DNA from: Neophaeotheca triangularis
Taxonomy: Eukaryota
Assembly (NCBI GenBank): GCA_054600435.1
Contig: BAAIJX010000030.1
Location: forward strand, 248,001-271,363
Length of the DNA: 23,363 nucleotides
Direction: 5' to 3'
Below the pieces are notes generated by a model. That model saw only the letters and a program-made list of their open reading frames with translations. It was not told where the DNA came from and searched no databases. The position numbers and the translations under genes are program-made. This document shows positions 65-23,363 of this stretch, piece after piece (position 1 is the first letter of the stretch; every line of letters begins with the position of its first letter).

Positions 65-217
65 TTTTTTTCTTCTTCTTAGTACGTGTATAGATATCGT
101 GAGTTTTGTATAGATGAAAGAAGGGTGATCTGCGTCAAGGGTATATGAAAGCCGGGAGAATGAAAAAGAAGAGAGTACGAAAAAGCTGTCGAGCTCGCGA
201 CCCTTGCATCGTGCAGC

Positions 218-225
218 TTTATATA
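218..225 (-). promoter_or_regulatory. Putative TATA box (TATATAAA) of the secreted-protein gene
   Basis: The + strand reads tttatata, i.e. TATATAAA on the - strand, at a plausible distance upstream of the ATG at 64. Confidence 0.45.
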
Positions 226-659
226 CATGTACGACATACAACCCGACAGGCCCTGCGCGATATGCCGGTTCTGGGGGGGAGAGGGGGCGAAGGGCCGCAG
301 CGCGCATATCAAAACGGGTCGCTACCTATCACACCTTGCTCGCGACTCCACACGGGCTACGGCGAGCTGGAGAGGCTATTAAGTTAAGGCCAACAACAAG
401 ACGCTTTCGCGCCGTCGGTTTCGTGAGACGTTGGGGACAGCAGCACAGCTGTTCCCCCCGAGTGATGAGAGTCAGCGCGGCGCGGAGCTTTGAAACTTGA
501 GGTGCTGTTCGAGTCGCGTTCTATCGTGTCGTGCAAATCGGAAGCAAGAAGGCCGCTGCTCTGCCACGTTTTGTAGTAGTGAGTGTGTGATGATGCAGGG
601 TCGGCGTGGGAATTGCTTGTTCTGTCGGCGTGAAACCGATGGCTTCGAAGTCTGTAGAC

Positions 660-715
660 TAGGTAGTAGGTAGTAGGTACTACTACTCACTATTACTAGG
701 TACTAGTAGGTAGGT
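660..715. repeat. Degenerate TAG/TAGG/TAC low-complexity microsatellite
   Basis: taggtagtaggtagtaggtactactactcactattactaggtactagtaggtaggt is directly visible in the sequence. Confidence 0.65.
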
Positions 716-1706
716 GAAGGTTGTATCTCATTCTCCACCTGTTTTGTGCGGGCCAACGGGTTTTTTGGGCTGGTGGTTGGTTTCACAGACGGGAAACGTT
801 TGCAAGGGTCCAAACAGTAGTCTACCTTACAGAGATAATAATGCTTGCGGTCGGCGGTCGGCCGATAAGACACGGTGCATAGGTGTGTCAATATTGTGCG
901 ATTGTTGCTAGTAGGAAACAGCAAAATTCCAATATTGTCCAATCGTTATCGCTGAAGATTTACAACCTTGCATGAAGTTGCGTATATACATATTATCATT
1001 ACATACCTTGCACAACGGTGATTTTCGGGCGCGGGTTTAGAGCTGGGGCGTCAAGTGGAGTCAGCTGACTCGCGGTGGAATCTGACGAGTCAACAACAGA
1101 ATCCATCAGAAGCTGATCCCACTTTCTTCACTTCTACAGGTAACAGGGCATCTTCAAATCTTACACGGATTCTTACTTGTGTGACGAGTAACTTGTCAGA
1201 GTTTGTCGAGGCATCGTCTCCAACGGACAAGCGCGACGACTTGAGCAGGATTTCAATAGGTAGAGTAGTACCATGCCATGTCGATTCATGCCACATGGAT
1301 ACCTGGCCCGACCCCTGTGAACTTCTTGATCGACCTCGAGATTTAAGGTGAACCCGCAATCGTTTGACCTTTCGGAAAGTTACCCAGCTGATGACTCGCT
1401 GCCAATCAAAGGCTGTCCGTGGGCTCGAGTCTGGATTGCTTCCAACCCTCAAGCAAGTGCGCGAACTGGACGCTCGGCGTGGTTGCACTAACGTTAGTAG
1501 TAGCTAGCAGCTCGGCATTAAGTATTGCTGGTGGACTCGTTCACGTTCGCAACCATATATTGTGACGACATTTTGCGTTGCAGTACTTAGCAGTCAATAG
1601 TGGTGGTTGACTCCTAGCAGCGGAACTCGGTTTGTAGTGCATCACACCTGGGCACTGGGAAGGTGGTCGAGGCCGGTGGAGGCATGATCAGCTTACAGCG
1701 CCGCCT

Positions 1707-2810
1707 TCAGCTTTTCTCAGTCGCGACTTCAGCACCGATAGCATCCAGCCATTTCAATCTCCAGGCCGAAAACTCGTCCTCCCTGCCATCCCACGACATC
1801 TTCGCTGTCTCGCTAGCAAGCTTCGCCTCGTCAACACATCCCTTCAACTGTTCCCTGACGGCCTCTTCTTCCAAATCATAGAAAGCACTAGCCAAGTCAT
1901 CAACCTGGTGCGGTATCTTCTTCAACGCATCCATCAACCGATCAAGCCTCTCCGCACCCGCGAGCTCACCACCACTAACCGCCGTATCCTCCATCTTGAA
2001 AGTCTTCAACCGCCTTTTCCCCAATGCAGCATACAGCAGCGTAATCTTTTTCAGCTTCCCCATAGCCTCTTCCACCAGCCTCTTCAACTCCGGCCGGTCC
2101 TGCGGCATGCTATTCGCCGCGTTAAAGACATCGTCCAAACTATCCGTATCCCCCGCCACCGCTTCATCATCACTATCCAGCAAAGCGTCCTTCTGCCCCT
2201 CCGTATCCAAATCCTCGCCTTCCATCCACTCATGCAATTCCGTGATAGCGTCCTTGATAGTCTCCCGCCACTGCTCAGCTTTCTGCACAGCCAAGCCCGC
2301 GATCCCCAACCCCTTCAACTCCGCGAGCGCATCGCAAGACTCCCAAACGACGCCCGTAGAAGCCAGGCTGTCGCGTCTCCGGCTCACTACCGAGCTGTCT
2401 CCTTGAGAAATCGCACGCACTTCTTGCAACAGCATTTCCATTTCCTTGAAAACTCGTCTTGTTCGGAGCTCTGCTTCTTTGCCCGCGAAGGCCCCCCATG
2501 TGGCTTTCTCTTGCGTGAGGATTTGGTTCGCGCTGATCATGGCGGGGAGGCATGTCGTTGAGAGCTCGCGCAGGACCGTGGTGACCGCGGAAGGCGTGAA
2601 GGGCTTGTTGATGGCGAGGAGGCTCAGTTTTGTCGTGTGGGCTTTGAGGAGGAGGGCGGAATCGTGGAGGACATTGAGGGGGTTTGGCGGGTTTGCAATC
2701 GTGGCGCTGGCTTCGGTTGCTCCCAGAGATGAGACGAAGCGTTCTAAGAGGGCCAGTGTTGATGCTATGAGGTCGGCCAGAGCCTTTTGTTGATCTTCTT
2801 TCGACGCCAT
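1707..2810 (-). CDS. GCIP / cyclin-D1-binding protein 1 (CCNDBP1)-like helical protein, 367 aa, intronless
   Basis: First true ATG is at 2810 in a good context (ccaccATGG); the ORF-track start at 2915 is a TTG. The motifs LLKAHTTKLSLL..KPFTPSA, LASTGVVWESCDAL, IKDAITELHEW, a central acidic tract and VDDLASAFYD resemble fungal GCIP-family proteins. Confidence 0.75.
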   Translation of the reverse strand: MASKEDQQKALADLIASTLALLERFVSSLGATEASATIANPPNPLNVLHDSALLLKAHTTKLSLLAINKPFTPSAVTTVLRELSTTCLPAMISANQILTQEKATWGAFAGKEAELRTRRVFKEMEMLLQEVRAISQGDSSVVSRRRDSLASTGVVWESCDALAELKGLGIAGLAVQKAEQWRETIKDAITELHEWMEGEDLDTEGQKDALLDSDDEAVAGDTDSLDDVFNAANSMPQDRPELKRLVEEAMGKLKKITLLYAALGKRRLKTFKMEDTAVSGGELAGAERLDRLMDALKKIPHQVDDLASAFYDLEEEAVREQLKGCVDEAKLASETAKMSWDGREDEFSAWRLKWLDAIGAEVATEKS

Positions 2811-3066
2811 GGTGGATGTGCAGTGTGTTAGGGTGACGGTGGGTTTCGAGCAGGGAAGATAGGTTGCGAAAGAAAGTTTTGGAGTGGTCGAAGACGAGAG
2901 CCCGGTAAGCTTCAATCAATGTGGCCAAATCTTAATCAATATCGGCGCAATTTACCCCACCCACTCTACGCGTCTCAAGTTTAGCCACGCGCATGACCTC
3001 TACTTTCTTTCTCAACTTCCACCAACCTTCCAATTGCCTCGTAGAGTGAATGGTTACAACACCGCA

Positions 3067-4509
3067 ATGGCACGCTCAAAGAACCAACGGCAATCGAACG
3101 CCAACGCCGCAGCAGCCGTCAACAAGACGCTGATCCTCGACAACGGCGGCCACAGCATCAAAGCCGGCTTCAGTTCACCGTCGCCCGAACCTAGCACCTC
3201 CGACTGCCACATCCTACCCAACGCTATAGCAAGAAGCACACGAGACCGCCGCACCTACGTCGCCTCGGAAATCGACACTTGCATCGACTACGGTGAGCTC
3301 GCGTTCCGGAGACCGATCGAGAAAGGCATCGTGACCAACTGGGAGAGCGAGAAAGCCATCTGGGAGCATGAGTTCGCGGAAAAGGCCAAGTTGGGGGGTG
3401 TAGAGCCGGAGCAGACGCAGTTGGTGCTGACGGAGGGACCCAATGCGCCTGCGACGCTGCAGAGGTGGGCGGACGAGATGGTTTTCGAGGAGTTTGGGTT
3501 TGCCGGGGCGTGCAGGGTTGGAGGTGGGTGATTATTTGCTTCTTGCTGCTACGGCTCTGCGGGTGGGTAGTGCTAGCTGTTGGGGGGACGTTGGACTCGC
3601 TGACATTTGGGTTTAGGGGTCACGCTGAATGCTTTTGCGCCTTCGCCGTTTGAGGGAGCTGCGCAATTGCCGCCAGGACAGCCTTTGGAGTGTCTTTTGG
3701 TGGTCGATGCGGGATATTCGCACACTACAGTCACCCCGCTGTATCATGGAAGACCGATACATCCGGCTTGCAGACGACTGGAAGTCGGTGGCAAAACTTT
3801 ATCGAATCAGCTCAAGGCAGTACTATCTCGGCAAGCTGAGCTGCAGAAGGAGGACTGGATCGCGAACCAAATCAAGGAAGATTGCTGTTTCGTTTCACAA
3901 ACGCCCGGAGACTTTGCCAGGAACCTCGAAAGGACGTGGAAAGGCGGTGCCAAGGATCCACGAGACATGGATCACACTTTGATGCTCGACTACGTACTGC
4001 CTGACTACGAGAACATCCACCGCGGATTTGCTCGCCCACACGACCCTTCCAAAGACGCAAAGAGCAGGCGACTAGGTCTTGCAGGACAACCCAAAGAAGA
4101 TATTATCACTTTGGCAAACGAGCGCTTCACCGTTCCAGAGCTATTGTTCTCGCCTGCCGACCTTGGCATGCAGCAGGAAGGCGTGGTAGGAACTGTGCTC
4201 CAGGTCGTAAACGCACTACCGGAAGCCCTGAGGCAGCCTTTCTTAGCTAACGTGCTGGTCGTCGGGGGTACTAGTCTCTTACCTGGTTTCGTGGAAAGGC
4301 TTGACTTTGAGTTGAGGAGCTTAATCGACGTTGAGACGGTGGTTCGGGTCGCGAAGCCAGAGGATCCCGTCAAGAACGCTTGGCTAGGGGGTGCCATGCT
4401 TGCATCGAATCATGAAGCTCTACGACACTTTGTCGTTACGAAGCAAGAGTACCAAGAACACGGCCCACAGTGGGCGAGTAGGAAATTTGCGGGAAAGATA
4501 GGCCGGTAG
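3067..4509 (+). CDS. ARP6: Actin-related protein 6 (SWR1 complex subunit), 449 aa; exons 3067-3523 and 3617-4509
   Basis: Actin-fold motifs: TLILDNGGHSIKAGF, FRRPIEKGIVTNWE, VFEEFGF, LVVDAGYSHTTVTP, DYVLPDY (Arp6-typical), NERFTVPELLFSPAD and VTKQEYQEHG. Phase-1 intron 3524-3616 (GTGGGT...GCTGAC...TTTAG) joins the two ORFs in frame. Confidence 0.93.
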
Positions 4510-4677
4510 CACGCATCCTAACCGCCGACTGCTGTCATACTCGTCACGAACACGGTTGTGACGAGTAGACGAAGCCGCTCTGTTCTTGCGGATGTGCATC
4601 GAAGAATCGAGAGACTCCGCGAATATCCACATAAAGTAGCCACGATGCTATCCTAGGCTGAAGTCGCGAAAGTCTCG

Positions 4678-6126
4678 TTAGGTCAAGGCTCCTGCAGACG
4701 GCTCAATACTCATCTGCGGGCCCTCTGCGTTGTTCTCATTATACTCCGCCACCGCAGCCTGCACGCTCAGATCGCGAAAGCGCTCTCTGTTGCGCTCAGA
4801 GTACTTGCCAAGGGCACGCAGCAGGTTCTTGCCTTCGGTAACAACCTGCGGCATCTCGTGGCTCAGCAACTTCTGCAGAGCGGGCACAGTCCTCTCATCG
4901 TCTCCCACGGCTTCGGCCACTATCAAGGACTTGGAAGTGAGGATCCACATCCATAGCAGGCCGGTGATGGAGTGCAGGGTATTGGCGCTGTCACTGGACA
5001 GTATGCCTGCCAATATGGGCATGTGTATGTGCTGTCGCTCGACTGTATTGAGATGGAATTCAAAAGGCTGGCCGATCCAGAGAACGTTCGCTAGAATCTG
5101 GCATCCTGCTGCTGATACAATCTCGCTTTGTACTGCTTTTTGCCCGTTGGTAGATGGCTGGTTACTCCTGTCCAGAGATTTAATTGCATCAAAAATCGTG
5201 TCCCACGCCGCAGAGTCGGTAAGAGGATGCTGAACTCTGAAGTAGGGATTCGTAGCAGCGTCCGATAGAACCCAAAGCAGACTCGCAGACAAGGGTGCCA
5301 CGAGCTTCACATCGTCCTCTTCCGCACCGTCTTCTTTGAGGTGCATGACAAAAGCCTCGTTCTCTTCAAGTAATCGCCACAGACGTAAAAGGCCGTTTTG
5401 AGCAATCATTTCCTCTAGCCAATCCTCCTGCTTTGCAAACAGTAGCACCGTAGACACGAGAGATGCCCAGTCTTCGGCTCCGAGCCACTCTTGTGACGAC
5501 TGCCAGTTCTGCCCAAAATACCTGCGAGGGACTTTCATCAGGACGCCAACGTCGGACGGCTGCAGTTGCTCGACGGTGCGCCCTTCTTCCTGTGTCATTT
5601 CTCGTGCTCGGTTACCCAGCTGAAAGAGCAGCTCTGTAGCCACTGGTACAGCTTTCACGTGAAAGTGGCCATCGAGCGCGTGGAGAGTTTGCCGAAAGCA
5701 GCGCGATTCGCTGCACGCGCTCAAGGTCGTAGGTGAGTCGTGGCAGATGTTGTTGAGCACCCCGACAATGATACCGTTTTTCTCCACCTCGAAGGTATTT
5801 GCCTTCTCAGTCGTGAAAAGCCTTGCCGCCCAATCGAAGCCGTGATTTCTGGATACATGCTCTCGAGCGGCATGGTTGTCGATGACAGCGTTGCCGATAC
5901 AGCTCAAGGCCAGAGAGATGACTGAAGTATCGCAGGCTTGAGTAATCTCGATGAGCTTGTCGAGAACGTTCGGGTTACCCAATCGTTGGCGGGATTTCTC
6001 ATTTTCCCGGCTGCATGCTCGTAGTTTTATCAATGTCTCCGTCAAAATAGTTGCCGTTGGCTCGGAGACTAGGAGTTCTTCTATGGCATTGTCCAGATCT
6101 GGTGATGGGACGTCGGCCGGAACCAT
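4678..6126 (-). CDS. Armadillo-repeat protein, distantly SmgGDS/RAP1GDS1 (Bem4)-like, about 482 aa
   Basis: Long open frame with first ATG at 6126. Leu-rich helical repeats, and ALSCIGNAVIDNHAARE resembles the N-terminal ARM motif of SmgGDS-like proteins; AAGCQILANV and LLRALGK are ARM-like. The family call is tentative. Confidence 0.6.
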   Translation of the reverse strand: MVPADVPSPDLDNAIEELLVSEPTATILTETLIKLRACSRENEKSRQRLGNPNVLDKLIEITQACDTSVISLALSCIGNAVIDNHAAREHVSRNHGFDWAARLFTTEKANTFEVEKNGIIVGVLNNICHDSPTTLSACSESRCFRQTLHALDGHFHVKAVPVATELLFQLGNRAREMTQEEGRTVEQLQPSDVGVLMKVPRRYFGQNWQSSQEWLGAEDWASLVSTVLLFAKQEDWLEEMIAQNGLLRLWRLLEENEAFVMHLKEDGAEEDDVKLVAPLSASLLWVLSDAATNPYFRVQHPLTDSAAWDTIFDAIKSLDRSNQPSTNGQKAVQSEIVSAAGCQILANVLWIGQPFEFHLNTVERQHIHMPILAGILSSDSANTLHSITGLLWMWILTSKSLIVAEAVGDDERTVPALQKLLSHEMPQVVTEGKNLLRALGKYSERNRERFRDLSVQAAVAEYNENNAEGPQMSIEPSAGALT

Positions 6127-6442
6127 ATCTGTAAAGCCGTCGCCCTCTGATGGTTGTTGCAAAGTTATCACAAGCGCGCTTAACAGTAGTGCAGTAAACG
6201 TAGTTGGATCCGGAAGGATGTTCTTGTAGGATGCTCAAGTTATATGAGTATTGCTAGGTAGTCTTTGGGTAACTTCCATTACTACCTACATTGCAGGGCA
6301 AGCACCTCACGATCCACGGATCTTAGTCAGCAAGAGCTCCAGCTCAGCAAGCTACCTTACCTGGTACGAACCACATCAAGCCAGCTATCGCAAACGAGCC
6401 TTACTACACCCCAGTGATACTACAGCACCAACGACCGCCAAA

Positions 6443-6857
6443 ATGACACGCGCCCAACAACAACTCTCCATCCTCCTCGTAGCGGCCTCGGTAAGGCCGA
6501 CCCGCACTTCCCACAAGCAGCCTGTATGACCCCAGCTAACCCGCAACCCGCCAAACAGATATATATGGCCCTGTACACAGGCCTAATACCCCTCCCCAGC
6601 AAGATACAAGAAGACATTGTCCCCGTCGTACGCTACCCTTAACTCTCAAATCAGTCCCCCAGACCTTTCGCTTTTGATCCTAACTAGAACGACAGCTACC
6701 TTTCTGGGCCCTCATATCTTTCGGCGCGCTGCTGCTTTTCCAGCTCGGCTACGGTGTTGCGACTTTCCACGATGTGCCCGAGGCGTATGATGAGTTAATG
6801 AATCAGATTGCCGTTGCGAGGGAAGACTTGAAGAAAAAAGGGGTGGAGGTTGATTAA
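6443..6857 (+). CDS. DPM3: Dolichol-phosphate mannosyltransferase subunit 3, 92 aa; exons 6443-6490, 6559-6627, 6696-6857
   Basis: Spliced product: MTRAQQQLSILLVAAS|IYMALYTGLIPLPSKIQEDIVPV|LPFWALISFGALLLFQLGYGVATFHDVPEAYDELMNQIAVAREDLKKKGVEVD. It has two TM segments and the DPM3-typical TFxDxPEAyxEL...ArxDLxxKG tail. Introns are GTAAGG..GCTAAC..CAG and GTACGC..CCTAAC..CAG, both phase 0. The full gene is absent from the ORF track. Confidence 0.95.
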
Positions 6858-8140
6858 GGCATTGGGAGTTCCAGGTCGGGGGATTGGAATGACGGCAATG
6901 CGAAGCGTGGAGTTTGGGGCGTTGGTTTGATCAAAAGTCTGGGTTATGCTAAGAGGTTAGGCCAGGGATCGGGGTAAGGGATGGATTTTGGCGAGAAGAC
7001 CGTCGATAGGTCAATATGTAATATGGTGGGAGCTGGCCCAGGAATTGGCGGACTTCAATAGGTGCTGGAGCTGCCTTTGTGGCTGGCCGCATACCGTTTC
7101 TCGAGACGATGAACCCTCCACGGGTCTGGCACGCTGTTGCCCCTGACCTTAAATCGCTTTTCATTTCCTTCACTACTCAAGACCGTCAAGCTAAGCTACC
7201 AATGAAGTTGAAGCCTCCCCCGTCACGGCATGTCAATTCTCTCAAAGCGTCCAACTGTCATCATTGAGTTGCTACGGGTCTGCAACTCATCGTTATTTCT
7301 CAGCTCTCGGCCTAGCTTAACCGAGCAACATTGTCAAGTAGGTATTTCATTTGGTCTCGTATTTGCGAGTCTGGTTGTTATGTGCTATCACGGCGCACAG
7401 CCTACAACAGCACTGTATAATCAGTAAGTTTGTATGTGTGTCCGGCGCATCTCGCATTCCTCGAGTTTCATTTTCTCTAGTATGCGGTCCTCAGCGCGGG
7501 CGAGACAACGGTTGTTCATTAGGAGCATGCGCAAGAAACGAATGTATGTCGTTTCAAGCTCCGGGTTCTGACTCCACAGGCCACTACTATAAAGGTACCT
7601 AGATTTAGGAGGTATGTTCGTCGAGGTAAGTGAAGCATCTACTAGTACTCAGCGGGACGACACTTGAGTTGCCGATAATAACACATCCTGTGCGCTTGAG
7701 CACATTGACAAATGCCCACTTTGTGGCCAAACGTCTACGAAAGGAAAGCAAAATCCTAACGAGACTCACGTGGAAGTGATAAGGTACTGGCTAGGAGGTA
7801 GAAGATGTATCGAGGCCAGGTCTTGCTTGCTCCACCAACAGACCTTGGGGCTCTGCGGGGACAAGCTTCAGCCAAGGACAAGCGCTTGCAGGGGTCAGCT
7901 GTGAGCAGCACAAGCAGCGTCACGAGCAAGACAGCCTCGAGCTCCGAGTACTTCGACAACACCACCACCACCTCCGCCTCCGCCTTCGACTCCGCCTCCG
8001 ACTCTTGGACCCGTCTTCGCCGCCTCGTATCGCAAAATCATCCCTACAGACATCTACCTAGGAATCAACCCAACACCCTACCACAGAATCCACGCGAATC
8101 TGCATCTACAACTGCATCTTCGTCGCAGTGGGCGGCGTCT

Positions 8141-11100
8141 ATGTCGCTCCAAATCTTCGTTGCACACACTGGCCAGCGACTCGCCCTCGATTCCTCGCAG
8201 GTCAATACCCCCGAATCCCTACGGTCATGGATCGCAGACAGTGCCTCAATACCGGCCCGAAATCAGATCGTCCTCACAGCCAAGGGTAAGCTCGTGCGCG
8301 CGCAGACCTTATTGACTGAGACGGAGCTTTTCGTATTTGAACGGAGCCTGTTCAGTGGCGAATCTCCTACAGCTTCGGCGGCGACGTCGACGACTTCCGG
8401 GGAACATAGCACACACTATCAACCAGGGCCACCACCGGACCGAGTCGGCGATCAGGGGGATTTGCAGACATGGCAGAGTCTGTTCAAGTCGAGGAGAAGC
8501 TGGGCAATAACCTTGTTGGACGGATGTACGGGAATTGCGAGACAGGCGGAGAGACATCAAGACGAACAGGCTGTCATCGAGCGTAGTGTCAGCGTAGCCG
8601 TGGCCAGCTTGCGCCAACATCTCAAAACGGCCGAGCAGAAGCAGGCTACGATCGAAGATGGTTCGGATGAATTACTCAGGGGTCAAGAGGCGTTGCTCGA
8701 CAGCTGGGAGGCGAATCTGGACAGTCTGAGCCGTGTACCTGCACGCTCTGAGTTTGCGCGCTTCGTTCAGCCGGAAGATTCGAGACCAAAGGCCCGGCGA
8801 ACGTCGTCGGCAGGTGTGCAAGCAACGCTTCAGAACTTTGTGGACGTCAGTGCTATCAGGAAAGCCGCGGGCTCAGCAGAGTCAATTATCGCAGGCTTCT
8901 CTGACCAGATCACTGGCCTGAGGACCACCATCAACGATGTCAAAAAAGATAGCGATGAGCTCGTGCAGGCTGTGGATCAACTCGTCACAGCATCTCAGGC
9001 TAGTAACAGGTCGGAGCCCGCGCAGCTTCTTGAGGAAATCGAGATGGTGGTCAAGAAGATGACCTCCGATCTAGAGCATCTCCAATCTCTTCCCAAGACC
9101 TCACAATCTGTGGCCCAGGCTTCGAAAATGGCGTCTCTACACGGTCGCAACTACCTCCCAAACCTCGAAGAGTACTGCCAAGAGATGAATGAGCTCGTTC
9201 AGAGGACAAAAGAGCAACGCGACAACGCCCAGGAGACCGCCATGAGGCATATGCGAACGCTCTCCGCCATTGAGAGCCAGCTCGCAGACGTGTTCTCGCA
9301 AACAAAAGGACTCGAACAGCCCAGTGAGGATCACGAAGCCTTTGCGCCGCTTTCCGTGGTAGCTAGGTTACCTTCTGTATACGGCCAGCTGCTCGTGGAA
9401 TCGGTCAGGCGTCGCGAGTGGGTAGCAAAGATGAAGCGCGATGCTGCAACACTGCAGGAAGAGATGGCAACTTATCAGGAAGAAGAAGAAAAGCGACGTA
9501 AGAGGTGGCTGCGCTCGGTTGAAGATGTGGTCCAGCCCGAAGCCTTGCAGGCGCGAGCGCTTGGGATAGAATTCAATCTCCAAAACGAAGGCGGAAGTTG
9601 GCCGGTAGTCTCTCGCCAAGAGCTGGATGCATATTTAAAGACGCTGTATGATATCTACGGAGAGTCACCACTGACGGAAGAGATGGATTTATCGATCAGG
9701 GACCTTGACAAGCCTACTCGAAAACAGATCAAGCATGCAAAAGCTTTCAAGAATGGTAGCATGCACGAGGCGGCTTTTGGCGACACGTCGCTTATGTTGC
9801 GCGGCGACGACCAACACAAGGGTCTCAAAGAGAGCAATTCCCGGCTGGAAGAAGACCTCAAAGTCCAGAAAAGCAGAGTGCGCAGGCTTGAGGATCTGTT
9901 GTATAGGCAAAACACTGCAACCCGCGCATCGACCGACCTGTTCACGCCCCAGAGCACTACTATAGGGCCTCCTGGCATACCATCGCCGCAACCTTCGGAA
10001 GATGCTGTCAGGACATCCTCGCCTAGACATCGACGTCTGTCTTCGACCGCGCAAGCCATGGAAGAAAAGAAGCTTGCTCGGCGGGTCGTTGACTTGGAGG
10101 CCGAGCTGCAAGCTTCGAAAGAGAAAGTTGCGGCTCTCGAACAGGAAGCCAACGTTCGCCGTGACTCGGATGCGGAAGCACAGCAGCGCGTCGAAGAAGC
10201 AGTGTCAATCAAGAAGGACCTGATGGAGAACATGGAAGCGCAACAGCGTGAGTTTGCTGACGAGCGTAGGACGCTGGAGCAAGATTTGCGTGATTCCAAG
10301 GAGAAGATTGAAGAGCTTGAAGGCGCGATCGAAGGCATGGAGGATGAGCGGACTGTTGCTGACGCCCGTATTTTATCGCTGGAAGAAGAGATTTTGCACC
10401 TTAGGCACGATTCCTCTGGACATGCTGCGCGAGCCGCAAATGAACAAGACGCGAAGGTGGTAATGGAGAAGAAGCTGCAGGCTGCGCTGGAAGCCCAGAA
10501 GGCTGCCGAGCTGGAAGTTAAAAATTTGAAGGCTGCGCAGAAAGAGCGCGAAGGCGTCGAAGCTGAGCAGCTGGAACGTCTGACTGAGGCACATGCTCAT
10601 CTTGTTCCGGATGCCGAAGCGCCTAGAGGTCTGACTACTCTTTCCGCAACGCTCGAGGAGGTGGCTCGCAAGTCTGCCGCACATGCTAGAGACCTGGCGG
10701 AAGCCGTTGCTTTTGCAAAATCCGAGAACGAAAGCCTGCGTTCAAACAACGAGCAGCAAAGATCTCAACTGACAGAGGCCAACGGGCAACTCGGCGAGAT
10801 ATCCCAGCAGTCATCGAAACTCGAAGAGCAAGCTGCGGCAGAAGCCGCCAAATCATTTTCCCTTGAACAGCAACTCCGAGATGAACAAGAGCAGCTGCGC
10901 CTTCTTCGCAATAAATTTGCGGAAGGCGAGACAGGATCAGAAGTGCTGAGGCAGCGTGTGGCGGATGCAGAAGCTCAGGCCGGCAAGCTTTCATCAGAAC
11001 TCGCGGAGGCAAATTCTCACATCAACCACCTCGATATTGAGCTCATGCGCTTGCACAAGAAGCACCAGACCTACCACAGCACGGCCGAAGGTTTGGCGGA

Positions 11101-12346
11101 GCGCTTGGAGAAGCGCGCAGAGCGCGCCAAGGACATCTCGCAACGTCTGTTCACTTACAATGCTCGACTTAGTAGGCTGCTGGAACGGCTCGGATTGGCC
11201 ATCTCCTACCAAGATGACAAAATGGTAGTTGAACGAGCTTCCAAGCTGGGGGCAAGCACGAACATTAGTGATCCTCCCGCTGCTATGAGCAGGACGACCA
11301 CGCTTACATCGCCTCCTCCTACCAGAAAGTCATCTGGAGCGGAAGAGCCTGCTGCGTTGTCCATGGTACATTGGCCTGACGCCCAGAGCATCGACGAAGA
11401 GACTGCGCAGTTTGAGAGCTACCTGCAACACATTTCTCAATTCAACGTTGACACTTTCAGCGAAGCTGTCGCCAAGCGTCTCCGTGACTTCGAGTACACG
11501 GCCAAGAAGTACAACCGTGAAGCGAAGGAGTCCACTAAACGCGCCGAAGGCTACAAGGAACGGTCAGTGAGACTCAAGAACGAAGCCTACGCCAAGGTTG
11601 CCGTCAAGGATTTCAAAGAGGGAGATCTCGCGCTCTTTCTGCCAACGAGAGGCCAGGCAAAGGGCGCTTGGGCCGCATTCAACATCGGTTGTCCGCATTT
11701 TTTCCTTGCTGAACGGGAGGGAATGCGCTTGGGCAGTCGTGACTTCATCGTTGCGCGCATTACCAAGGTAGAGCAGCGGATTGTCGATTTGAGCAAGTCC
11801 ATGTCGATGCAAGTTGCAGAGAATCGCAGCGTTGACGAGGGCAGCGAGGCGCCGTCCTATGATGATGACAATCCGTTCGAGCTCTCCGACGGCCTTACGT
11901 GGTGGATGGTGCATGCCACGGAAGAGCGTGGACCAGGCGCAGCGCCTACGACACCCGGGCTCGGCAAGAGCACCGTTGCTGCCGCCAATGTTGACGCTAG
12001 AGGCAGTATCCGCATCAAGAGGACAAGCAAGGGAGATGATGCCAGTAAGCATCTAAACAAGAGCCTAGACAGCAGAAGGAGCAGTTCCAACTCCAAGCGG
12101 AGTGTGGCGGGAGTGGCGGTGCCGACTATTGCGAATACTAACGGTAGTCCAATAGCCACTCAAGCAGAGACCTCGAGCCGCGCAGAAGCAGAGACTGTGA
12201 AGCAGAGACCCGTTGCCCCTGCCGACCTAGGCATAGAGGGCAGCACGCAGCCTTCTAAACGACCACCCCAACCCTCATCCCAGCAACCGCAGAGCGAGGT
12301 TCCGAGCTCTCAGGTACGTGATATCGACCTTCTGGTGAGCCCTTAG
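8141..12346 (+). CDS. ATG11: Autophagy-related protein 11 (selective-autophagy scaffold), about 1401 aa in the unspliced form
   Basis: Conserved-type N-terminus MSLQIFVAHTGQRL; Atg17-like region (LLVESVRRREW, EEEKRRKRW); long coiled coils; C-terminal claw domain DFKEGDLALFLPTR..WAAFNIGCPHFFL..DNPFELSDGLTWW. The frame is also open from an ATG at 7805, and there is an alternative last exon (see findings). Confidence 0.95.
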   Translation: MSLQIFVAHTGQRLALDSSQVNTPESLRSWIADSASIPARNQIVLTAKGKLVRAQTLLTETELFVFERSLFSGESPTASAATSTTSGEHSTHYQPGPPPDRVGDQGDLQTWQSLFKSRRSWAITLLDGCTGIARQAERHQDEQAVIERSVSVAVASLRQHLKTAEQKQATIEDGSDELLRGQEALLDSWEANLDSLSRVPARSEFARFVQPEDSRPKARRTSSAGVQATLQNFVDVSAIRKAAGSAESIIAGFSDQITGLRTTINDVKKDSDELVQAVDQLVTASQASNRSEPAQLLEEIEMVVKKMTSDLEHLQSLPKTSQSVAQASKMASLHGRNYLPNLEEYCQEMNELVQRTKEQRDNAQETAMRHMRTLSAIESQLADVFSQTKGLEQPSEDHEAFAPLSVVARLPSVYGQLLVESVRRREWVAKMKRDAATLQEEMATYQEEEEKRRKRWLRSVEDVVQPEALQARALGIEFNLQNEGGSWPVVSRQELDAYLKTLYDIYGESPLTEEMDLSIRDLDKPTRKQIKHAKAFKNGSMHEAAFGDTSLMLRGDDQHKGLKESNSRLEEDLKVQKSRVRRLEDLLYRQNTATRASTDLFTPQSTTIGPPGIPSPQPSEDAVRTSSPRHRRLSSTAQAMEEKKLARRVVDLEAELQASKEKVAALEQEANVRRDSDAEAQQRVEEAVSIKKDLMENMEAQQREFADERRTLEQDLRDSKEKIEELEGAIEGMEDERTVADARILSLEEEILHLRHDSSGHAARAANEQDAKVVMEKKLQAALEAQKAAELEVKNLKAAQKEREGVEAEQLERLTEAHAHLVPDAEAPRGLTTLSATLEEVARKSAAHARDLAEAVAFAKSENESLRSNNEQQRSQLTEANGQLGEISQQSSKLEEQAAAEAAKSFSLEQQLRDEQEQLRLLRNKFAEGETGSEVLRQRVADAEAQAGKLSSELAEANSHINHLDIELMRLHKKHQTYHSTAEGLAERLEKRAERAKDISQRLFTYNARLSRLLERLGLAISYQDDKMVVERASKLGASTNISDPPAAMSRTTTLTSPPPTRKSSGAEEPAALSMVHWPDAQSIDEETAQFESYLQHISQFNVDTFSEAVAKRLRDFEYTAKKYNREAKESTKRAEGYKERSVRLKNEAYAKVAVKDFKEGDLALFLPTRGQAKGAWAAFNIGCPHFFLAEREGMRLGSRDFIVARITKVEQRIVDLSKSMSMQVAENRSVDEGSEAPSYDDDNPFELSDGLTWWMVHATEERGPGAAPTTPGLGKSTVAAANVDARGSIRIKRTSKGDDASKHLNKSLDSRRSSSNSKRSVAGVAVPTIANTNGSPIATQAETSSRAEAETVKQRPVAPADLGIEGSTQPSKRPPQPSSQQPQSEVPSSQVRDIDLLVSP

Positions 12347-12730: not shown

Positions 12731-14224
12731 TTACTCCCCCAGACTTCGAATAAGCCTAGGCAACAAATCCTCCGTAAAAGCCCACACATTCCCCGAATAG
12801 TCACCCGACCACAGGTTTCCCGTAAACCACGTCGATCGCCTGCCTTGCAACGCGTACAGATCCCGCACGAACCCTTGCCTCAGAATCTCGGGCGACTGCC
12901 GCCACAGCACGGAATTATGGTCCGCAAAAGCCACAAACTCGACGTCATCATCACTGCCAGAACCTGCAAAAGACCCGCCCTCTTTGAACAGCGCCCCAAC
13001 CCCCTCAACGACCATCCCCTTTGCTTCATCGTGAGTGACCGCGAAATCCGTCGAAAACAGCACCCGGAACAGGCCCGCGCCCGCCGGCCCCCTCGAATCT
13101 AACCGCAGCGTCCACGGCCAGTCGCGGATTGCCAGATAGTCCGCCGGAGCAGCTTGCGGGGAAAAGTAGTTTACGGAAATGTTGGCGGGCAGGGATGGAA
13201 TGCGCGCGACGCCTACAAAAGACCAAGTCGGGGTCCATGTGGTGAGGGCGGCGGTTTCGGCGGCGTCTGGGCAGAGGGGCGAGAGGTTTGCGAGGCTGGG
13301 TGGCGGCGTGAAGAGCAGTTTGCGGGCTTTGATTAACTTTTTGCTTCCCCTGGCGGGTGAGTGGACGAGGAGCTTTACGCCGGCGTCTGTGCGTTCGCCC
13401 GCTATGACGTGGGTGTTGAGCAGGACGTCGGAGTTGAGGAGCTGCAGGGCGCGGCTGTAGAGGAGGCTGTTGCTGCCCGTTGCCGGGACGAAGAGGCTGC
13501 TGGCGAGTAGCTCGCGGGTTATGGGCGCGCCGAAGGCCAGCATGACGTGCAGGGTTAGGACTTTGGAGATGCCGCCGACCCCGAGGTTGGAGATTGAGGC
13601 CATCAAGGGCGCGGCGTCTTCGATGCCGTAACGTTGGGCTATGGTGCCGAAGGGCTCGAGGAGCTCGTCGGGGATTTCGGAGCCCTTGGGGAAGTCCCAG
13701 TAGCCGGGGAGGAGGTAGGGGGAGTATTTTTCCGTGAGGTTTAGCCATTTGGCCAGAGCAGGGAAGGTGTTGTTTGGGGGGACGTAGGAGAGGTTGCTGC
13801 CGGAGGAAATGTCGACGTTTATGGGGGATAGGGTAGAGCGGGGGTATGATTTGAGAGGTACATCGAAACGGTCGAAGAAGGCTCTTGAGTTGCCGTACTC
13901 GAGATAGGTTTGTACGCCGTACTCGATCGAGGTGTTGGTCCCGGGTACAAAATAGGTATCAACGTGACCCCCCTAGAGAATGTGAGCTTTCGGTTGGTAA
14001 ACGAGAGGTTTGATGTTACGTACGAGGTGGTCTTTTGGCTCGATCACAATCACGCTAACATTGAGATCTTCTCGTAGGCGGACGGCTGCGTATGTACCCG
14101 ATGCTCCCCCTCCAAGAATTGCTACGTCTCTCTCGATGATGTCCTCCACAGCGAAGTCGCTCTCGTCGATTGCTCGAGCCAAGCCAGTAGCAATGGCTGA
14201 CACGAAAACTAGGCCAAAGCGCAT
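12731..14224 (-). CDS. Secreted FAD-dependent oxidoreductase (flavin amine-oxidase-like superfamily), 480 aa; exons 14224-14024 and 13972-12731
   Basis: Signal peptide MRFGLVFVSAIATGLARA; Rossmann motif DVAILGGGASGTYAAVRL...VIE. A 51-nt intron (13973-14023, GTACGT..GCTCAC..TAG) restores LGGHVDTY. The C-terminal LYALQGRRSTWFTG is typical of this fungal family. Confidence 0.88.
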
Positions 14225-14317
14225 AGTTGCTGTAGGTGACGAATCGGAGACGGACAGAATGTTGTTGCGTTCAACTGACGAAGAGAAATACCATGCAAAT
14301 TTTGGAATCGTTCAACC

Positions 14318-17989: not shown

Positions 17990-18064
17990 ACGGCGCTTAC
18001 GGGGTGTGAAAGCGCACCTCGCAGCATGAAGGATAAGCTTCTTGGAGTAGTCGATACCTCCGGC

Positions 18065-19193
18065 TCAATCTACTTCAGGCACTGGCAGGCCGTCGTACAG
18101 CTTCATCCGCCGTCCCAGCTTCTCCATAGCAGCCATGGCCTCTTTTTGCCGCAGCTTCTTCGATTCCTCATCCGTCACAAGCACAAAGTCATACTTGATC
18201 AGCCTGCTGCCTTCATTCACCCCATACTGAGCAGCCTGCTCAGCATCCACCTCGTACAGATCAATCAGCAAGGACTCTTTAACCCCGAAAACCGCATCGG
18301 ATGTTTCGTAAGGGTCGCCTCGGAGGTACAAAGCTCTGCGATTTCAAAAGTGTCAGCCAACAATCCACCGCGGCAGATTCAACGGCGTTGGTGTTTTCCT
18401 CACGTTATGAGATGGTCGTATCCCTCCTTCTGGAACATGAAGTGCATATGGCTCGGCCGGTAGCAATGTCTCTTCAGCTGCTTCAACAGCTTGCCCACGG
18501 GCCCGTCGTGGGGAATGGGATATGGCACGGGCACAATGGCCTTGAACCAGAAAACGCCGTCGTCCGCGCTCTCCATCACGGCTCTTCCATCCGGACCATT
18601 CCGCTCTTGGTATTGTACATCGTAAAAGCCCTTGCTGTCCGTTTCCCATATGTCAATCTTGACGCCCGGGATGGGTTGGCCGTTGGTGTCTTTGACGGTG
18701 CATAGCACCAGACAAGGCTCGCCGTCTGGATCGTGCGAAATCACTGTGCCGTTGGCTTCGTTTTCGGCTTCGTGAGAGTGGAAAGGCCCGAGGACGGTGC
18801 CTTCGGTGCTCGCTGGCGGTTTGGGATGATCGATCGAGTCTACAAGGAGTGAAAGCCCGAGAATGTCGGAGAGGAGGATGAATTCCTGTTTGGACATGTT
18901 CATCAGCAACAAAGCTCATCATCGTCCAGCGCAATGATATGGGAGTCGAAGCGTACTTGGCGAACATCAGTGCATATTTGTCCCACGGATGTTAGGAAGT
19001 GAATCCCCGTCATCCATTCATCTGTGCTCAATCTCGTCTCGCGAGCAAAGTCGTGCAGGTGTTGGACTAAGCGCTCGAGAATGTATTTGAGTCTGGGGTT
19101 TGGACATTGCGAGTTGATCAACTTGACATTATCTGTGATGTTGTCGATTGTCAAGTCCTTGAGAGGAGGGACGTCGACCTCAGACGGATCCAT
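18065..19193 (-). CDS. Intradiol ring-cleavage dioxygenase, hydroxyquinol/catechol 1,2-dioxygenase type, 329 aa; exons 19193-18957, 18885-18404, 18335-18065
   Basis: N-terminal dimerisation domain LVQHLHDFARETRLSTDEW...RQEFILLSDILGLSLLVD, then TEGTVLGPFH. Fe(III) ligand motifs GFYDVQ, PVPYPIP and RPSHMHF, followed by SDAVFGVKESL. Introns 18886-18956 and 18336-18403 have canonical signals. The hydroxyquinol preference is inferred from the RQEFILLSD/GPFH/DAVFGVK signature. Confidence 0.93.
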
Positions 19194-19832
19194 GTGCGAC
19201 GCGGTACTACCTTTGTTTTCCTGTGGGTCTATTGAAAACGAGAAGGGTCGAGCATCTGGTCAAGGGCTGCAAGCCGGTTTTGTCGAATGCCAGAGGGTGA
19301 ATTCCACTGTAATAATAGTTGGACGTATGAATTGGAGCAAACAATGTCGGAATAGAGCCGTCTATAGGTACAGTACATACCCCACACCCCACTTGCGAGG
19401 CTCTAGAAGATTATAGGTACAAGTAGGTATTATCGGCGTCGTTCTTCGGCTTTTAATTCTAAAGTCGAAATGCCGATTGACTACCTTTAAGTACCTGTTA
19501 ACATCGATCTGTGTTCTTTTAAAACTTGATATAGTAAGCAATTAATGAAGTTAAACATTCATTATAAGTACATCTACTTTCAAGGTGAAGTATCATAATC
19601 ATATGGATGAGGTGTAGGACCTGTTTACTTAGTTAGGTAGTGCTAGAGAGATCGAGAGGCCGTTAAGCGTACAGCCCTAGACTGATGCCATATCAGGTTA
19701 AGCCGACCTTGGCAAAATTCGGCCTCACCACAGCTTTCGGTAGAGAGTATCAGCCCTGAGTACAAGCCCAAGTGCCTACGGCTTCAACAAACTAGTGGGA
19801 CAACAACAACGCTCGCCTTTCTTCTGCCCAGC

Positions 19833-20586
19833 ATGCCTGGCGCAGGGAAGCAGGCGCAAGATGTGCAAGACCAGATCAGAGAGCTGCTCCAGGCTGGCGT
19901 CGATCCCACAACCATCCATCGACGCCTCAACGTGGGTCGAAGCAGCGTGTATCGCATGCGTCGCAGCATCGCCCAGCATGGCACTGCATACGCCCCTGTC
20001 GAGCTGAACAAGAGAAATGGCAGACCCAAAACCCTCACCAAGGAGCAGGAGTTGGTAAGTCGATAATCAAATAACGCTTTGTGCGCTTGTCGGAATTCAT
20101 TTTCTAACCTCACTTCAGATTGTGTGCGACTGGCTCCGTGACCCCAAGAACCGCGAGGGCTACCTCGACAACATGGTATGGTACATCTACAACACTTTCA
20201 AGGTCGTTGTCAGTACTACCACATGCTCGAAGATGAAGCGCAAGTGGCTACAAGTCATCGACGCCCAGGAACGTGGCGAGGAGCCCCCAGACCCTGACAC
20301 CATCCAGGTTGTCGTCCACAGGGGCCCGAACAAGACACCCCGCAAGCGCAAAGCCAGGACACCAAGTGTCGAGCCAGCTGAACAGCATGAGAGCATGTCC
20401 TACCCGCCTCCTCAGCTCGACCCCCATCATCACATCCAACCTCCACTGCCGACCCAGCCTCCTGTCAGGCAGCCTCCTTGGGCTCCGATGACACAGCAGA
20501 TGCTACAGCAAGCAAGCATGCATATGGGAGAGGGACATGTATTGCCGCGGCAATCCGCATCCGGAGCGACGAACATCGGCAACTGA
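19833..20586 (+). CDS. HTH DNA-binding protein resembling the N-terminal domain of Tc1/IS630-type transposases, with no catalytic domain, 229 aa; exons 19833-20054 and 20119-20586
   Basis: Consensus intron 20055-20118 (GTAAGT..CTAAC..TTCAG, phase 0). HTH1 is IRELLQAGVDPTTIHRRLNVGRSSVYRMR, followed by the linker NGRPKTLT and HTH2 YLDNMVWYIYNTFKVVVSTTTCSKM. A basic TPRKRKAR and a P/Q/H-rich tail follow. Confidence 0.75.
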
Positions 20587-21120
20587 AGATCCCAAGTACC
20601 ATCCTTTCCCTCGGACACAGGTGGACACGCAGGCAACAATGGCGTTTGGAACTTCATTACAATAGGCGCGAGCCGGTCTTGTGGTTTGTGACGGCAAGTT
20701 TAGTGTAGTATACCCATACCCACGGCGTTCGGTTGAACATTAACCTTGCTAGCAAGATATACCCGCAGTCTGTTTCCCGGTGATTCAACAAGTATGCAAA
20801 ACTGACCGCGATGAGAAACAAATCAATTGCTCTTGCCCTCTGATTTTCCTTGCTGTTGCTCTGAGAGTGTGCCAAGTAAGTCATACTGCTTGATCAAACA
20901 GGGAGAGCTTGGCTTCCATAGGCGATCCAATCTCCCCGATTTAATTTCGACGTAGTGCATGAGAAGAAAGGGCACCGTATGCTGGATAATGGTCACGATG
21001 CTGATGACGCTTAATGCGAAGCTCACTCAACGATGCCGCAAAGTTACGGCGTTCATTATTGAAGTTTGAAACAGCGCTGCATTTTGGGTATCGAGAGATC
21101 TATCAATTCTACAAGGTTTC

Positions 21121-22194
21121 CTAGACCTGTGTTCCGTCGCTGCCACGTTGTATCATCTCCTGCAAAGGCGTGTCGATGCGCTTCGTTTGCTCTTTGAGGT
21201 TGAAGTCTTGTACTAGCTTCCTCCAAGATGTCGCTGCTCTGTCTGCATGTTCTCTGGGGACGTTCTCACTGCTATCCGTCAACGTTCGTGAGAATAACTC
21301 GGCGGCAAGGCACCCTTCGAAACCCAGATCGACCAGAATCGTGTGCAGGACTTCTTTGACGGGCAAATAAGCGCCACGGTCCTCCTCGCCATAAAATAAC
21401 CGGCAGTTTCTCGACCAGCTCATTCGCGCAGGCTGACTGGCGTCATAATAAGCGTGGCCCTCTCGTAGAGGCGCCTCAAGCCTTTCCGCATCTACGACCT
21501 GCACCCAGACAATCTTCTCGACATCGATCGAGCTCGCCATCCGCTGCAGGGAAGCTCGCATTCTTTCCTCGGCGTTTTCATTCCTCCCAGACTCCGCCGC
21601 AGGGTCCGCGTAGACGCGCGCCGCGATGTTGAAAGTATCGAGACAGATGCCGAAATTGGGCCTATCGACTCGGCGCACGACATCCCAGCATTGCTCCCAA
21701 GTGTCGACGTGAGTTCCCCAAGCCAGGCTTTCATACGAAAAGCGAATGTCGTGAGGGGCACCGAGATCGGCCACAGCCCGGAAGTCGGCGACGATGGTGT
21801 CGATGTCGCCGGTCGTTTCCTCGGCGGACAGAAAGGTCGAAGGAATGGCGATGATGTCCGTTCGCAGAATTCTCGCCAGATCGATCCACAGCCGCATTTC
21901 CTCGACACGCTGCTGGTGCCTCTGTCGGTCGCGAAGGCCCTCGTAGTGCATAAAGGGTTGGAGGCAGACGATTGCGAGGCCCCGCTCATCACACATTGAG
22001 CGAACCATCTTTGCCGCGGCTCGCAGTCTCGCGTCACTTGTGTCCAGGGTCAGTTTGTCGGCGATGTAGCTGAGGTCTTCGTAGAAGAGTTCCAGGTCGA
22101 AGCCGATCCGGGCCGCTTGGTCGAGCTTGGATGGCAAGTCGTGGACCCATGCTCTGCCGAGCGAGTGGCTCGAAATGGCTGGGTAGCAAGGCAT
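21121..22194 (-). CDS. qutC: 3-dehydroshikimate dehydratase (QutC/Qa-4-like; AP-endonuclease-2/xylose-isomerase TIM barrel), 357 aa, intronless
   Basis: The motifs SLGRAWVHDLPSKLDQAA, ELFYEDL, CLQPFMHYEGL, YESLAWGTHVDTWE, RVDRPNFGICLDTFN, VQVVDAERL, MSWSRNCRLF and ELFSR match fungal DHS dehydratases as I know them. Confidence 0.88.
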   Translation of the reverse strand: MPCYPAISSHSLGRAWVHDLPSKLDQAARIGFDLELFYEDLSYIADKLTLDTSDARLRAAAKMVRSMCDERGLAIVCLQPFMHYEGLRDRQRHQQRVEEMRLWIDLARILRTDIIAIPSTFLSAEETTGDIDTIVADFRAVADLGAPHDIRFSYESLAWGTHVDTWEQCWDVVRRVDRPNFGICLDTFNIAARVYADPAAESGRNENAEERMRASLQRMASSIDVEKIVWVQVVDAERLEAPLREGHAYYDASQPARMSWSRNCRLFYGEEDRGAYLPVKEVLHTILVDLGFEGCLAAELFSRTLTDSSENVPREHADRAATSWRKLVQDFNLKEQTKRIDTPLQEMIQRGSDGTQV

Positions 22195-23215
22195 CTTCTG
22201 GGTTCGTTTGCGTGATGGTCAATTAGTTGCTGCTAGATGGATATGGATTGTGCTGGTTTGGGGGGCGAGTGCAAAGCAATGTCATCAAGGGTTTCGAGGA
22301 AAGTGGACTGCGTGAATGCTGCGAGAGGATTCGTCTTCTATTATATGACGTCCAGGGTTGGGCTATCAAGATAACACGAGCGGCCTAGAGATAGCTCAAC
22401 TCAAAAATGCTGAACCGAGATTATGATGGATGGATGAATGCAGGGCGGAGGACGGCGGCGAAATGCTACTTCCTACTACGGTGAGGTTACTCAAGGCTTG
22501 GTACAGTACTTGGAAGCTCGTTCCATTATTATCCTTGGACCAGATCCGCGGCATAACAACACCTCGTGACTCGAGCATGCCATGATTATTGTGCCAACTT
22601 TCCGCTGATAATAACAAGTGTGGTGGCTATTACTGACGGAGGTGTCGTCCGTGGACAGTAGGTAGGATTCAAAAAAGATCTCGCACTGGCCACATACTGC
22701 ATGCACTCGCACATCAGGATTCAGGGGGATAGATAAAGTCAATCCTTGGTCCCTGCATGGCCAATCTTGTGTACCACATCCGCGGTGTAGCTATTGTCCA
22801 AGAATAGAAATAGACGTTGGGGCTTGTGCAACCAACCATGTCCATACCTTACCGCATTGTTATTATTGACTGTTGCTTCCTCTTCTCTCTCCGCCTTTGC
22901 TATCCGCTCGCTCCTCATCAGTAATGAATGAGATAAGTAAAAAAGCACCATTCAACCCAGCGGGCCCTCCATCTCTGCACGAACCTCAATAACAGACTCC
23001 CCGCCCCCCCAAATTGACCCAGCATACGGTACTCACCAGCCATCGTCTTGACAACGGCCCCGAGAGTCTAGCAAACCTTCAAGACGCAGCACCCAGACCG
23101 TGAAGATCGACAGACCTCACAGCTTTGCTCGCATGGCAAAGGCACGTTTTACAAAAGACGATAATTTCGTGTTGGGGAGCTCGACGCCCGTCTATTATGA
23201 TGCTCCCTCGAAACC

Positions 23216-23217
<2 letters not shown>

Positions 23218-23277
<60 letters not shown>

Positions 23278-23295
23278 CGGGGGGGGGGCGGGGGG
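23218..23295 (+). repeat. Poly-G tract (60 uninterrupted G, then G runs broken by two C)
   Basis: Directly visible: G at 23218-23277, C at 23278 and 23289, and G to 23295. Confidence 0.95.
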
Positions 23296-23363
23296 AGGAC
23301 TTCTTGCAAGGGTTGAAGAAGAAGAGTTTTGGGCCTGGGAAGTCTGGGGGCACGGGGATTGGA

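Follow-up and report, generated by a model that had tools for sequence, protein, structure and literature searches.

A transposase-like two-part helix-turn-helix gene beside quinate and hydroxyquinol catabolic genes in Neophaeotheca triangularis, a candidate host-recruited regulator in Dothideomycetes

The stretch of 23,363 nucleotides (nt) analysed here (the window) comes from the fungus Neophaeotheca triangularis (assembly GCA_054600435.1, contig BAAIJX010000030.1, positions 248,001 to 271,363 of the forward strand), and the positions given below are window positions. At 19833-20586 on the plus strand lies a gene for a helix-turn-helix (HTH) protein (the HTH gene), which occurs as one copy in the window and encodes 229 amino acids (aa) once its two exons are spliced. 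Exon 1 (19833-20054, 74 aa) contains the N-terminal HTH, a linker and the beginning of a second HTH. It is followed by a phase-0 intron of 64 nt (20055-20118) with the signals GTAAGT...TTCTAAC...CAG, including a CTAAC branch site, and by exon 2 (20119-20586, 155 aa and the stop codon), which contains the remainder of the second HTH and a Pro/Gln/His-rich tail. This model agrees, in its coordinates and splice signals, with the two-exon gene and consensus intron described in an earlier note made from the letters of the window alone. A frame-compatible GT-AG phase-0 intron was present at the same position in 19 of the 20 distinct sequences compared (window included), with lengths of 48-238 nt. 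One of the 31 loci found in a scan of metagenomes for homologues, L006 (positions 2-340), is an intronless homologue, and the splice junction is confirmed because its frame reads EQELEVLTYLRDP straight across the intron position. The GC content of the gene (0.51-0.61) is similar to that of its neighbours.

The start of the protein, MPG[AS]GKQ, is common to all orthologues, and is followed by a PAI-like three-helix subdomain (19857-19976, residues ~9-48) with an invariant RSS.YRMKR motif in its third helix, which reads RMRR in the window copy. The linker (19977-20039, consensus NK[KR]NGRPK) includes the GRPK of the earlier note at residues 63-66 (20019-20030); its residues N59, K60, K61, N62, G63, R64 and P65 are unchanged in eight orthologues, and its GRP aligns with the GRP of DDE_3 transposases. 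Given what is known of Tc1 and paired domains, this linker probably makes minor-groove contact, as the GRPR-type linkers of Tc1 transposases do. The second, RED-like subdomain (20040-20274, residues ~70-126) is split by the intron, and has a recognition helix with the motif STTT.SK.KRKW. Further downstream is the basic patch TPRKRKAR (20335-20358, residues 147-154), which resembles a nuclear localisation signal, is present as the note had reported, and is peculiar to the window copy. The Pro/Gln-rich tail was likewise found, with 20 Pro and 11 Gln (together 30%) among the last 102 residues. By-eye comparison of the 24 complete tails of the family gave a C-terminal helix motif, [ID].QL.QQ[LIV]Q.E[IV]A.A, which is clear in 21 of them, and a degenerate copy (MTQQMLQQASMHM) can be placed in the window protein at 20488-20526.

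Comparison of exon 1 with Pfam gave matches to HTH_29 (31.8 bits, curated cut-off 28.1) and HTH_7 (30.9 bits, cut-off 23.8), while exon 2 gave zero Pfam matches, and therefore no DDE domain follows the HTH domain, as the earlier note had stated. A word-index search with exon 2 as query found nothing (10 candidates, none scored), and the same search with exon 1 returned three relatives, including P0005 of Acrodontium crateriforme (348 aa), which has the same layout of a conserved N-terminus of ~125 residues and a Gln-rich tail. Residues 1-133 of P0005 were used as query in an exhaustive HMMER search of 1.84 billion cluster representatives, which gave 92 matches with an expectation value (E) ≤ 1e-3. 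The 54 best matches (E ≤ 1.6e-9) were family members or exon-sized pieces of them (52-368 aa), and a DDE domain (E ≤ 1e-5) was detected in none of these 54. Below them the identity falls to 26-38%. The 38 distant matches (P0060-P0097) include four short pieces of 46-64% identity which look like family fragments and were excluded (P0065, P0076, P0077 and P0081); the other 34 were scanned, with DDE_3 present in 5/34, HTH_Tnp_IS630 in one, and HTH_32, HTH_33 or HTH_23 in most.

The relationship to transposases was visible in profile comparisons. Alignment of eight full-length orthologues with six DDE_3 transposases using hhalign gave a probability of 99.4% (E 2e-21, 116 columns), pairing family residues 4-122 with transposase residues 2-120, and this bore out the proposed homology to Tc1/IS630 DNA-binding domains. 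The consensus of the six transposases, ...GRP..LT.E.E..L..YLEDRPTAYLDE.A.YLYDEFGV..S.STISRLLKR.RWSRK, also showed that the fungal transposase motif cited in the earlier note is real. Against solved structures, the family profile matched the PAI subdomain of Sleeping Beauty at E 7.7e-5, whereas a single sequence gave this match at E 0.056 only. A protein-atlas search gave scores of 0.84-0.87 to Tc1-like HTH clusters, which are leads and not evidence. As judged from these sequence comparisons, the first ~125 residues are a two-part HTH domain that shares ancestry with the DNA-binding end of the transposases of DDE_3 (Tc1/IS630) type.

Three of the distant matches deserve mention. P0061 of A. crateriforme (754 aa) carries, in one gene model, both a distant version of the HTH domain (37% identity, residues 3-112) and a linalool dehydratase/isomerase domain; the two may be genuinely fused, or two genes may have been merged in the model. 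P0079 of Delitschia confertaspora (285 aa) and P0097 of Venturia inaequalis (316 aa) are DDE-less fungal proteins with the distant domain (33-34% identity), and transposase DNA-binding modules lacking a catalytic domain may be common in Dothideomycetes.

A structure was predicted for the Peltaster orthologue P0012, in place of the window protein itself, with an alignment of eight sequences. The mean predicted local distance difference test (pLDDT) score of the model was 73.9, with values of 81-94 across both subdomains. Helices were predicted at residues 9-20, 25-32 and 36-48 and, after the linker, at 70-80, 83-86, 90-101 and 107-126, with a C-terminal helix of low confidence at 171-187. No Foldseek match to this model reached E ≤ 0.001; the top three matches were complexes of Pax paired domains with DNA (1pdn, 1k78 and 6pax, E 4.7e-3 to 2.7e-2, probability 0.99-1.0, template modelling score 0.26-0.39), and the Tc3 two-part domain ranked eighth. 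The predicted fold is thus consistent with the sequence evidence, and is by itself insufficient to carry the case.

At least eight named genera of Dothideomycetes, which belong to Mycosphaerellales and Capnodiales or, in the case of Peltaster, are unplaced, have full-length orthologues without a DDE domain. The named sources are Zymoseptoria tritici, Teratosphaeria destructans, Friedmanniomyces endolithicus, Zasmidium cellare (M409DRAFT_24103), Hortaea werneckii, A. crateriforme, Polychaeton citri (K431DRAFT_343475) and Peltaster fructicola. Z. tritici has one member per strain in the 90% cluster, for five strains. Among eight orthologues 69 columns are invariant, concentrated in the third helices and the linker, with the runs RSS.YRMKR, NKKNGRP and STTT.SK..RKW (the last helix). 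The ratio of nonsynonymous to synonymous substitution rates (dN/dS), calculated over 122 domain codons for 13 representatives, was 0.006-0.207 in 68 of the 78 pairs, with synonymous sites saturated in the remaining ten. The exon-2 frames were open in all 24 complete relatives (117-217 aa), with spacers that vary widely. The family is thus vertically inherited under strong purifying selection across Mycosphaerellales, Capnodiales and Peltaster.

When five DDE_3 transposases were used as tblastn queries against the window, the matches were confined to their first ~145 residues and no DDE remnant was found. The same held for the 31 metagenome loci with flanks of up to 10 kilobases (kb), where the N-terminal ~145 residues alone matched and nothing DDE-like was detected. 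Inverted terminal repeats were not found in 18900-21400, in line with the earlier note; the sole inverted repeat in this region is a 17-nt pair with 82% complementarity (19809-19825 and 20962-20978), which is at chance level and has one arm ending 8 nt before the ATG. With orthologues in at least eight genera, low dN/dS, a conserved intron and neither terminal repeats nor a DDE domain, the proposal of an intact host gene in place of a dead transposon was upheld.

On its upstream side the HTH gene is head-to-head with a gene for an intradiol dioxygenase of the hydroxyquinol 1,2-type, as had been noted; the first exon of the dioxygenase gene begins at 19193 on the minus strand, and its first two coding blocks (18400-19193, minus strand) match Pfam Dioxygenase_N and Dioxygenase_C. 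For the orthologous dioxygenase of locus L027 the best structure matches were hydroxyquinol 1,2-dioxygenases. Downstream of the HTH gene, at 21121-22194 on the minus strand, is a gene for a 3-dehydroshikimate dehydratase of the qa-4/qutC type (Pfam AP_endonuc_2), whose relatives are so named by their sources and to which no named protein is more than 66% identical. A catabolic dehydroquinase II gene is head-to-head with the HTH gene in 6 of the 31 metagenome loci, belonging to four lineages (L001/L002, L003/L004, L027 and L028), and in all six the same type of dioxygenase adjoins the dehydroquinase. The window lacks the dehydroquinase and has its dehydratase on the opposite side of the HTH gene, which therefore has catabolic genes on both flanks. 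By its gene content L027 can be read as a complete cluster for quinate utilisation, in the order dehydroshikimate dehydratase, sugar transporter, quinate/shikimate dehydrogenase, inositol-monophosphatase-like gene, dioxygenase, dehydroquinase and HTH gene. One contig carries both the HTH protein and the dehydratase in each of three named genera, with accession numbers 7 (Z. tritici, five strains), 13 (Zasmidium) and 11 (Polychaeton) apart, numbers which presumably follow gene order. A Zn2Cys6 pattern (CX2CX6CX5-12CX2CX6-8C) was found in no frame of the window, L001-L004, L027 or L028.

The placement of a hydroxyquinol 1,2-type dioxygenase inside the quinate cluster, between the inositol-monophosphatase-like gene and the dehydroquinase (L027, positions 1-9800, and also L001-L004 and L028), is an observation in its own right, and suggests that protocatechuate is routed through hydroxyquinol in these fungi. 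Within the window, an open frame at 17990-18463 on the plus strand, just past the dioxygenase frame, matches L002 and L027 at 38-47%, and is probably an antisense shadow of the last dioxygenase exon and no separate gene. On the minus strand at 12734-14311, a 413-aa frame without Pfam match adjoins a 112-aa frame with a Rossmann motif of the NAD/FAD-binding type, and these frames may be an intron-split flavin monooxygenase of the same catabolic group.

Linkage to catabolic genes was counted over the 12 lineages whose upstream sequence extends for 1.5 kb or more, and was present in five of them, the window included. The upstream neighbours in the unlinked lineages are SDR, biotin ligase, Arf, alcohol dehydrogenase or hemerythrin genes, and the HTH protein is equally conserved there. 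Downstream, Pam16/Pex24 genes occur both in the linked locus L004 and in the unlinked loci L005 and L029, with mitochondrial-carrier and UBX genes as further neighbour classes, and the microsynteny of the HTH gene is thus conserved across several classes of locus. A Pex24 gene is also present downstream of the intronless L006, in an orientation opposite to that in L004, L005 and L029.

The HTH and dioxygenase genes share a divergent intergenic region (19194-19832) with an AT-rich core (GC 0.37). No convincing shared binding site was detected in the five linked intergenic regions, and none is claimed here. The five linked upstream regions had few exact 7-10-mers in common, and some of these were within dehydroquinase coding sequence. 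Allowing one mismatch, 11 9-mers were present in all five regions compared with 1.4 in mononucleotide shuffles, and these were mostly CT-rich tracts. TGGCAAA-like words had no fixed position in the linked regions. The one element with a conserved position was of the type CAC[CA]AC.T; in 7 of 12 loci (the window, L001, L003, L027, L028, L016 and L029) it precedes the ATG by 80-121 nt, and in the window it is at ~19728, 105 nt before the ATG. Since the unlinked L016 and L029 have it too, it probably belongs to the core promoter or the leader. The Neurospora qa-1F site was rejected as a candidate, having two window matches with three mismatches (1.29 expected by chance) and none near the HTH gene.

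The remaining frames of the window lie away from these genes. The upstream part (1707-12346) contains housekeeping genes, with a GCIP-domain protein, an intron-split actin-family protein, a 518-aa frame without Pfam match and ATG11 (a 1514-aa frame), and at 23052-23363 an open frame with a long Gly run (a Pro run on the other strand) continues off the end of the window, and is either low-complexity coding sequence or a repeat.

Taken together, we consider it probable (roughly 0.7) that this is a host gene which has kept a Tc1/IS630-type DNA-binding domain, and whose product would be a sequence-specific DNA-binding regulator of host genes. The protein consists of a PAI and RED paired-like domain without the catalytic domain, then a low-complexity spacer that evolves fast, and most relatives also have a short C-terminal helix. 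By comparison with Tc3, Sleeping Beauty and Pax, it may bind as a monomer to a two-part DNA site, where both recognition helices would contact the major groove and the GRPK linker the minor groove. Partners could then be recruited by the variable spacer and the C-terminal helix, allowing sequence-specific regulation through the tail, with the neighbouring genes of quinate and hydroxyquinol catabolism as no more than candidate targets. Of the host-recruited regulator envisaged in the earlier note, the host gene and its DNA-binding domain are upheld, but transcription factor activity is something we infer, and the catabolic link holds in 5 of the 12 lineages.

Several observations weigh against this interpretation. 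The window copy is the most divergent member of the family and sits on a long branch of the family tree, keeping 60 of the 69 invariant columns and differing at nine. Most family members score under the curated Pfam cut-offs, and the tree gives no direction of descent, whether from transposase to host gene or the reverse. The basic patch is not kept in the orthologues, which have none at this position or GKK at most, and this part of the earlier proposal did not extend beyond the window copy. The C-terminal motif is absent in L019, doubtful in L028 and in the window, and degenerate in the latter. Transcription is represented by one 203-nt metatranscriptome contig (19803-20005, one mismatch), which ends before the intron and may reflect DNA carry-over; it comes from one library, and that run contained a tenth of the words.

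A transposase-type DNA-binding domain without its catalytic domain, in a copy on a long branch, could also point to a decaying or recently truncated transposon fragment, or to a spurious open reading frame. Such an origin is highly improbable here, given dN/dS values of 0.006-0.21, intact frames in 24/24 complete relatives, a conserved intron position, flanking genes conserved in several lineages, no inverted terminal repeats in the region searched and a DDE domain in 0/54 close relatives. A dead transposon in particular is ruled out for practical purposes by the combination of selection, intact frames, conserved intron and DDE_3 matches restricted to the N-terminus. The same domain evidence that points to a regulator would also serve for a DNA-binding protein with a non-transcriptional role, in chromatin or centromere architecture or in binding the ends of related transposons and so silencing them. 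In 7 of the 12 lineages the gene is conserved irrespective of its neighbours, and domesticated Tc1/mariner DNA-binding modules of Drosophila are linked to cell-cycle and chromosome functions, according to the part of PMC13548663 drawn on here. The pogo-derived CENP-B-like proteins and transposon repressors consisting of a DNA-binding domain only offer comparable cases. However, a variable Gln/Pro/His-rich spacer with a conserved short C-terminal helix would be more usual in transcription regulators, cognate transposon ends were found near none of the loci examined, and near-invariance across two orders would be surprising in a repressor of one transposon family, which makes a non-transcriptional role unlikely.

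A narrower function would be to regulate, from within the cluster, the catabolism of quinate, protocatechuate and hydroxyquinol. The protein would act via the divergent promoter between its own gene and that of the dehydroquinase or dioxygenase, either alongside the classical qa-1F/qa-1S module or instead of it. Such a function would account for the position of the window gene between a dioxygenase and a dehydroshikimate dehydratase, for its head-to-head arrangement with dehydroquinase II in L001/L002, L003/L004, L027 and L028, where the dioxygenase comes next, and for the gene order of L027, which spans the quinate cluster up to the HTH gene. The proximity of accession numbers in Z. tritici, Zasmidium and Polychaeton, and the lack of a Zn2Cys6 pattern in the window and the six linked loci, point in the same direction. 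Linked loci turn up in scattered parts of the family tree, and so the linkage looks old, but this tree (127 domain columns) has good support for 3 of its 28 inner branches, and being so poorly resolved it cannot date or order the loss of linkage. Against a role tied to the cluster, the linkage is limited to 5 of 12 lineages and the protein is as conserved in the unlinked ones. The Pam16/Pex24 synteny is kept with or without the cluster (L004, L005 and L029), and so the adjacency may be inherited gene order. Moreover, the five intergenic regions lack a convincing shared site, and the qa-1F and qa-1S genes may lie beyond the stretches examined (11.9 kb for L027). We thus regard control of the adjoining cluster as a tentative reading, less probable than not. 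That the quinate cluster of Capnodiales/Mycosphaerellales, extended by a hydroxyquinol dioxygenase, recruited a transposase-derived paired-like HTH protein as its resident regulator is a speculative extension, and rather doubtful at present.

Whichever genes it may regulate, a host gene with a transposase-type DNA-binding domain can be compared with several known systems. The HTH protein has the two-part N-terminal HTH DNA-binding domain of the Tc1/mariner/IS630 transposases (Tc3, Sleeping Beauty, DDE_3), with an identity of 26-37% to the DDE_3/Tc1-like enzymes. Unlike these, its gene has no DDE domain, terminal repeats or signs of mobility, and is, in the sequences examined, one conserved, intron-bearing locus under purifying selection. 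Pax paired domains, which are thought to share ancestry with the domains of Tc1-type transposases, have a PAI/RED arrangement that the HTH domain would share, and provided the three best Foldseek matches, none of them at E ≤ 0.001. However, exon 1 scores below the cut-off for Pfam PAX (PF00292, E 0.13, 12.7 bits, cut-off 22), the model lacks the N-terminal beta-hairpin, and the family, which belongs to a fungal and not an animal lineage, has no homeodomain or octapeptide. In fungi, pogo-derived transposase proteins serve their hosts as the CENP-B homologues of Schizosaccharomyces pombe and as Pdc2 of Saccharomyces cerevisiae, and these have a CENP-B/Tc5-type HTH, often with DDE_1 remnants. They resemble our protein in their transposase-derived HTH, but neither the CENP-B N-terminal nor the Tc5-type HTH was among the eight Pfam families reported for exon 1 even at E ≤ 10, nor was it found for P0005.

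The closest parallels in type of evidence are the Drosophila genes CG4570, cag and toy, which the part of PMC13548663 drawn on here describes as domesticated Tc1/mariner DNA-binding modules recognised by orthology, microsynteny and purifying selection. Like the HTH gene they are described there as host genes retaining just this module, whereas the fungal case is from another kingdom and represents an independent event. In its location beside structural genes of quinate utilisation the HTH gene resembles qa-1F/qutA and qa-1S/qutR, but its product has a different fold from the Zn2Cys6 protein qa-1F and the AROM-like qa-1S. The qa/qut gene lists in the passages of PMC12610400 drawn on here name no HTH gene, and give qutH as a Gfo/Idh/MocA-type oxidoreductase. 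Our literature search found no paper on this family or on its Z. tritici member (MYCGRDRAFT_107867, also Mycgr3G107867), and no description of a Tc1/IS630-derived regulator for Dothideomycetes.

Host genes that keep the DNA-binding module of a transposase alone are a known route to regulators, as illustrated by Pax, the Drosophila genes and the pogo-derived proteins of yeasts. As co-option of such modules has already been described, the present family is an uncharacterised fungal example of it, with a domain that is unusually well conserved (69 invariant columns across two orders). The adjoining quinate and hydroxyquinol catabolic genes provide candidate targets that can be tested, and the presence of the family in Z. 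tritici, for which genetics and RNA-seq are available, means that its function could be settled quickly. If the gene does control the cluster, the classical qa/qut paradigm would gain a regulator of a new type. This would mean that one of the oldest eukaryotic model gene clusters has changed its kind of regulator, and would represent a fungal parallel to the origin of the Pax proteins.

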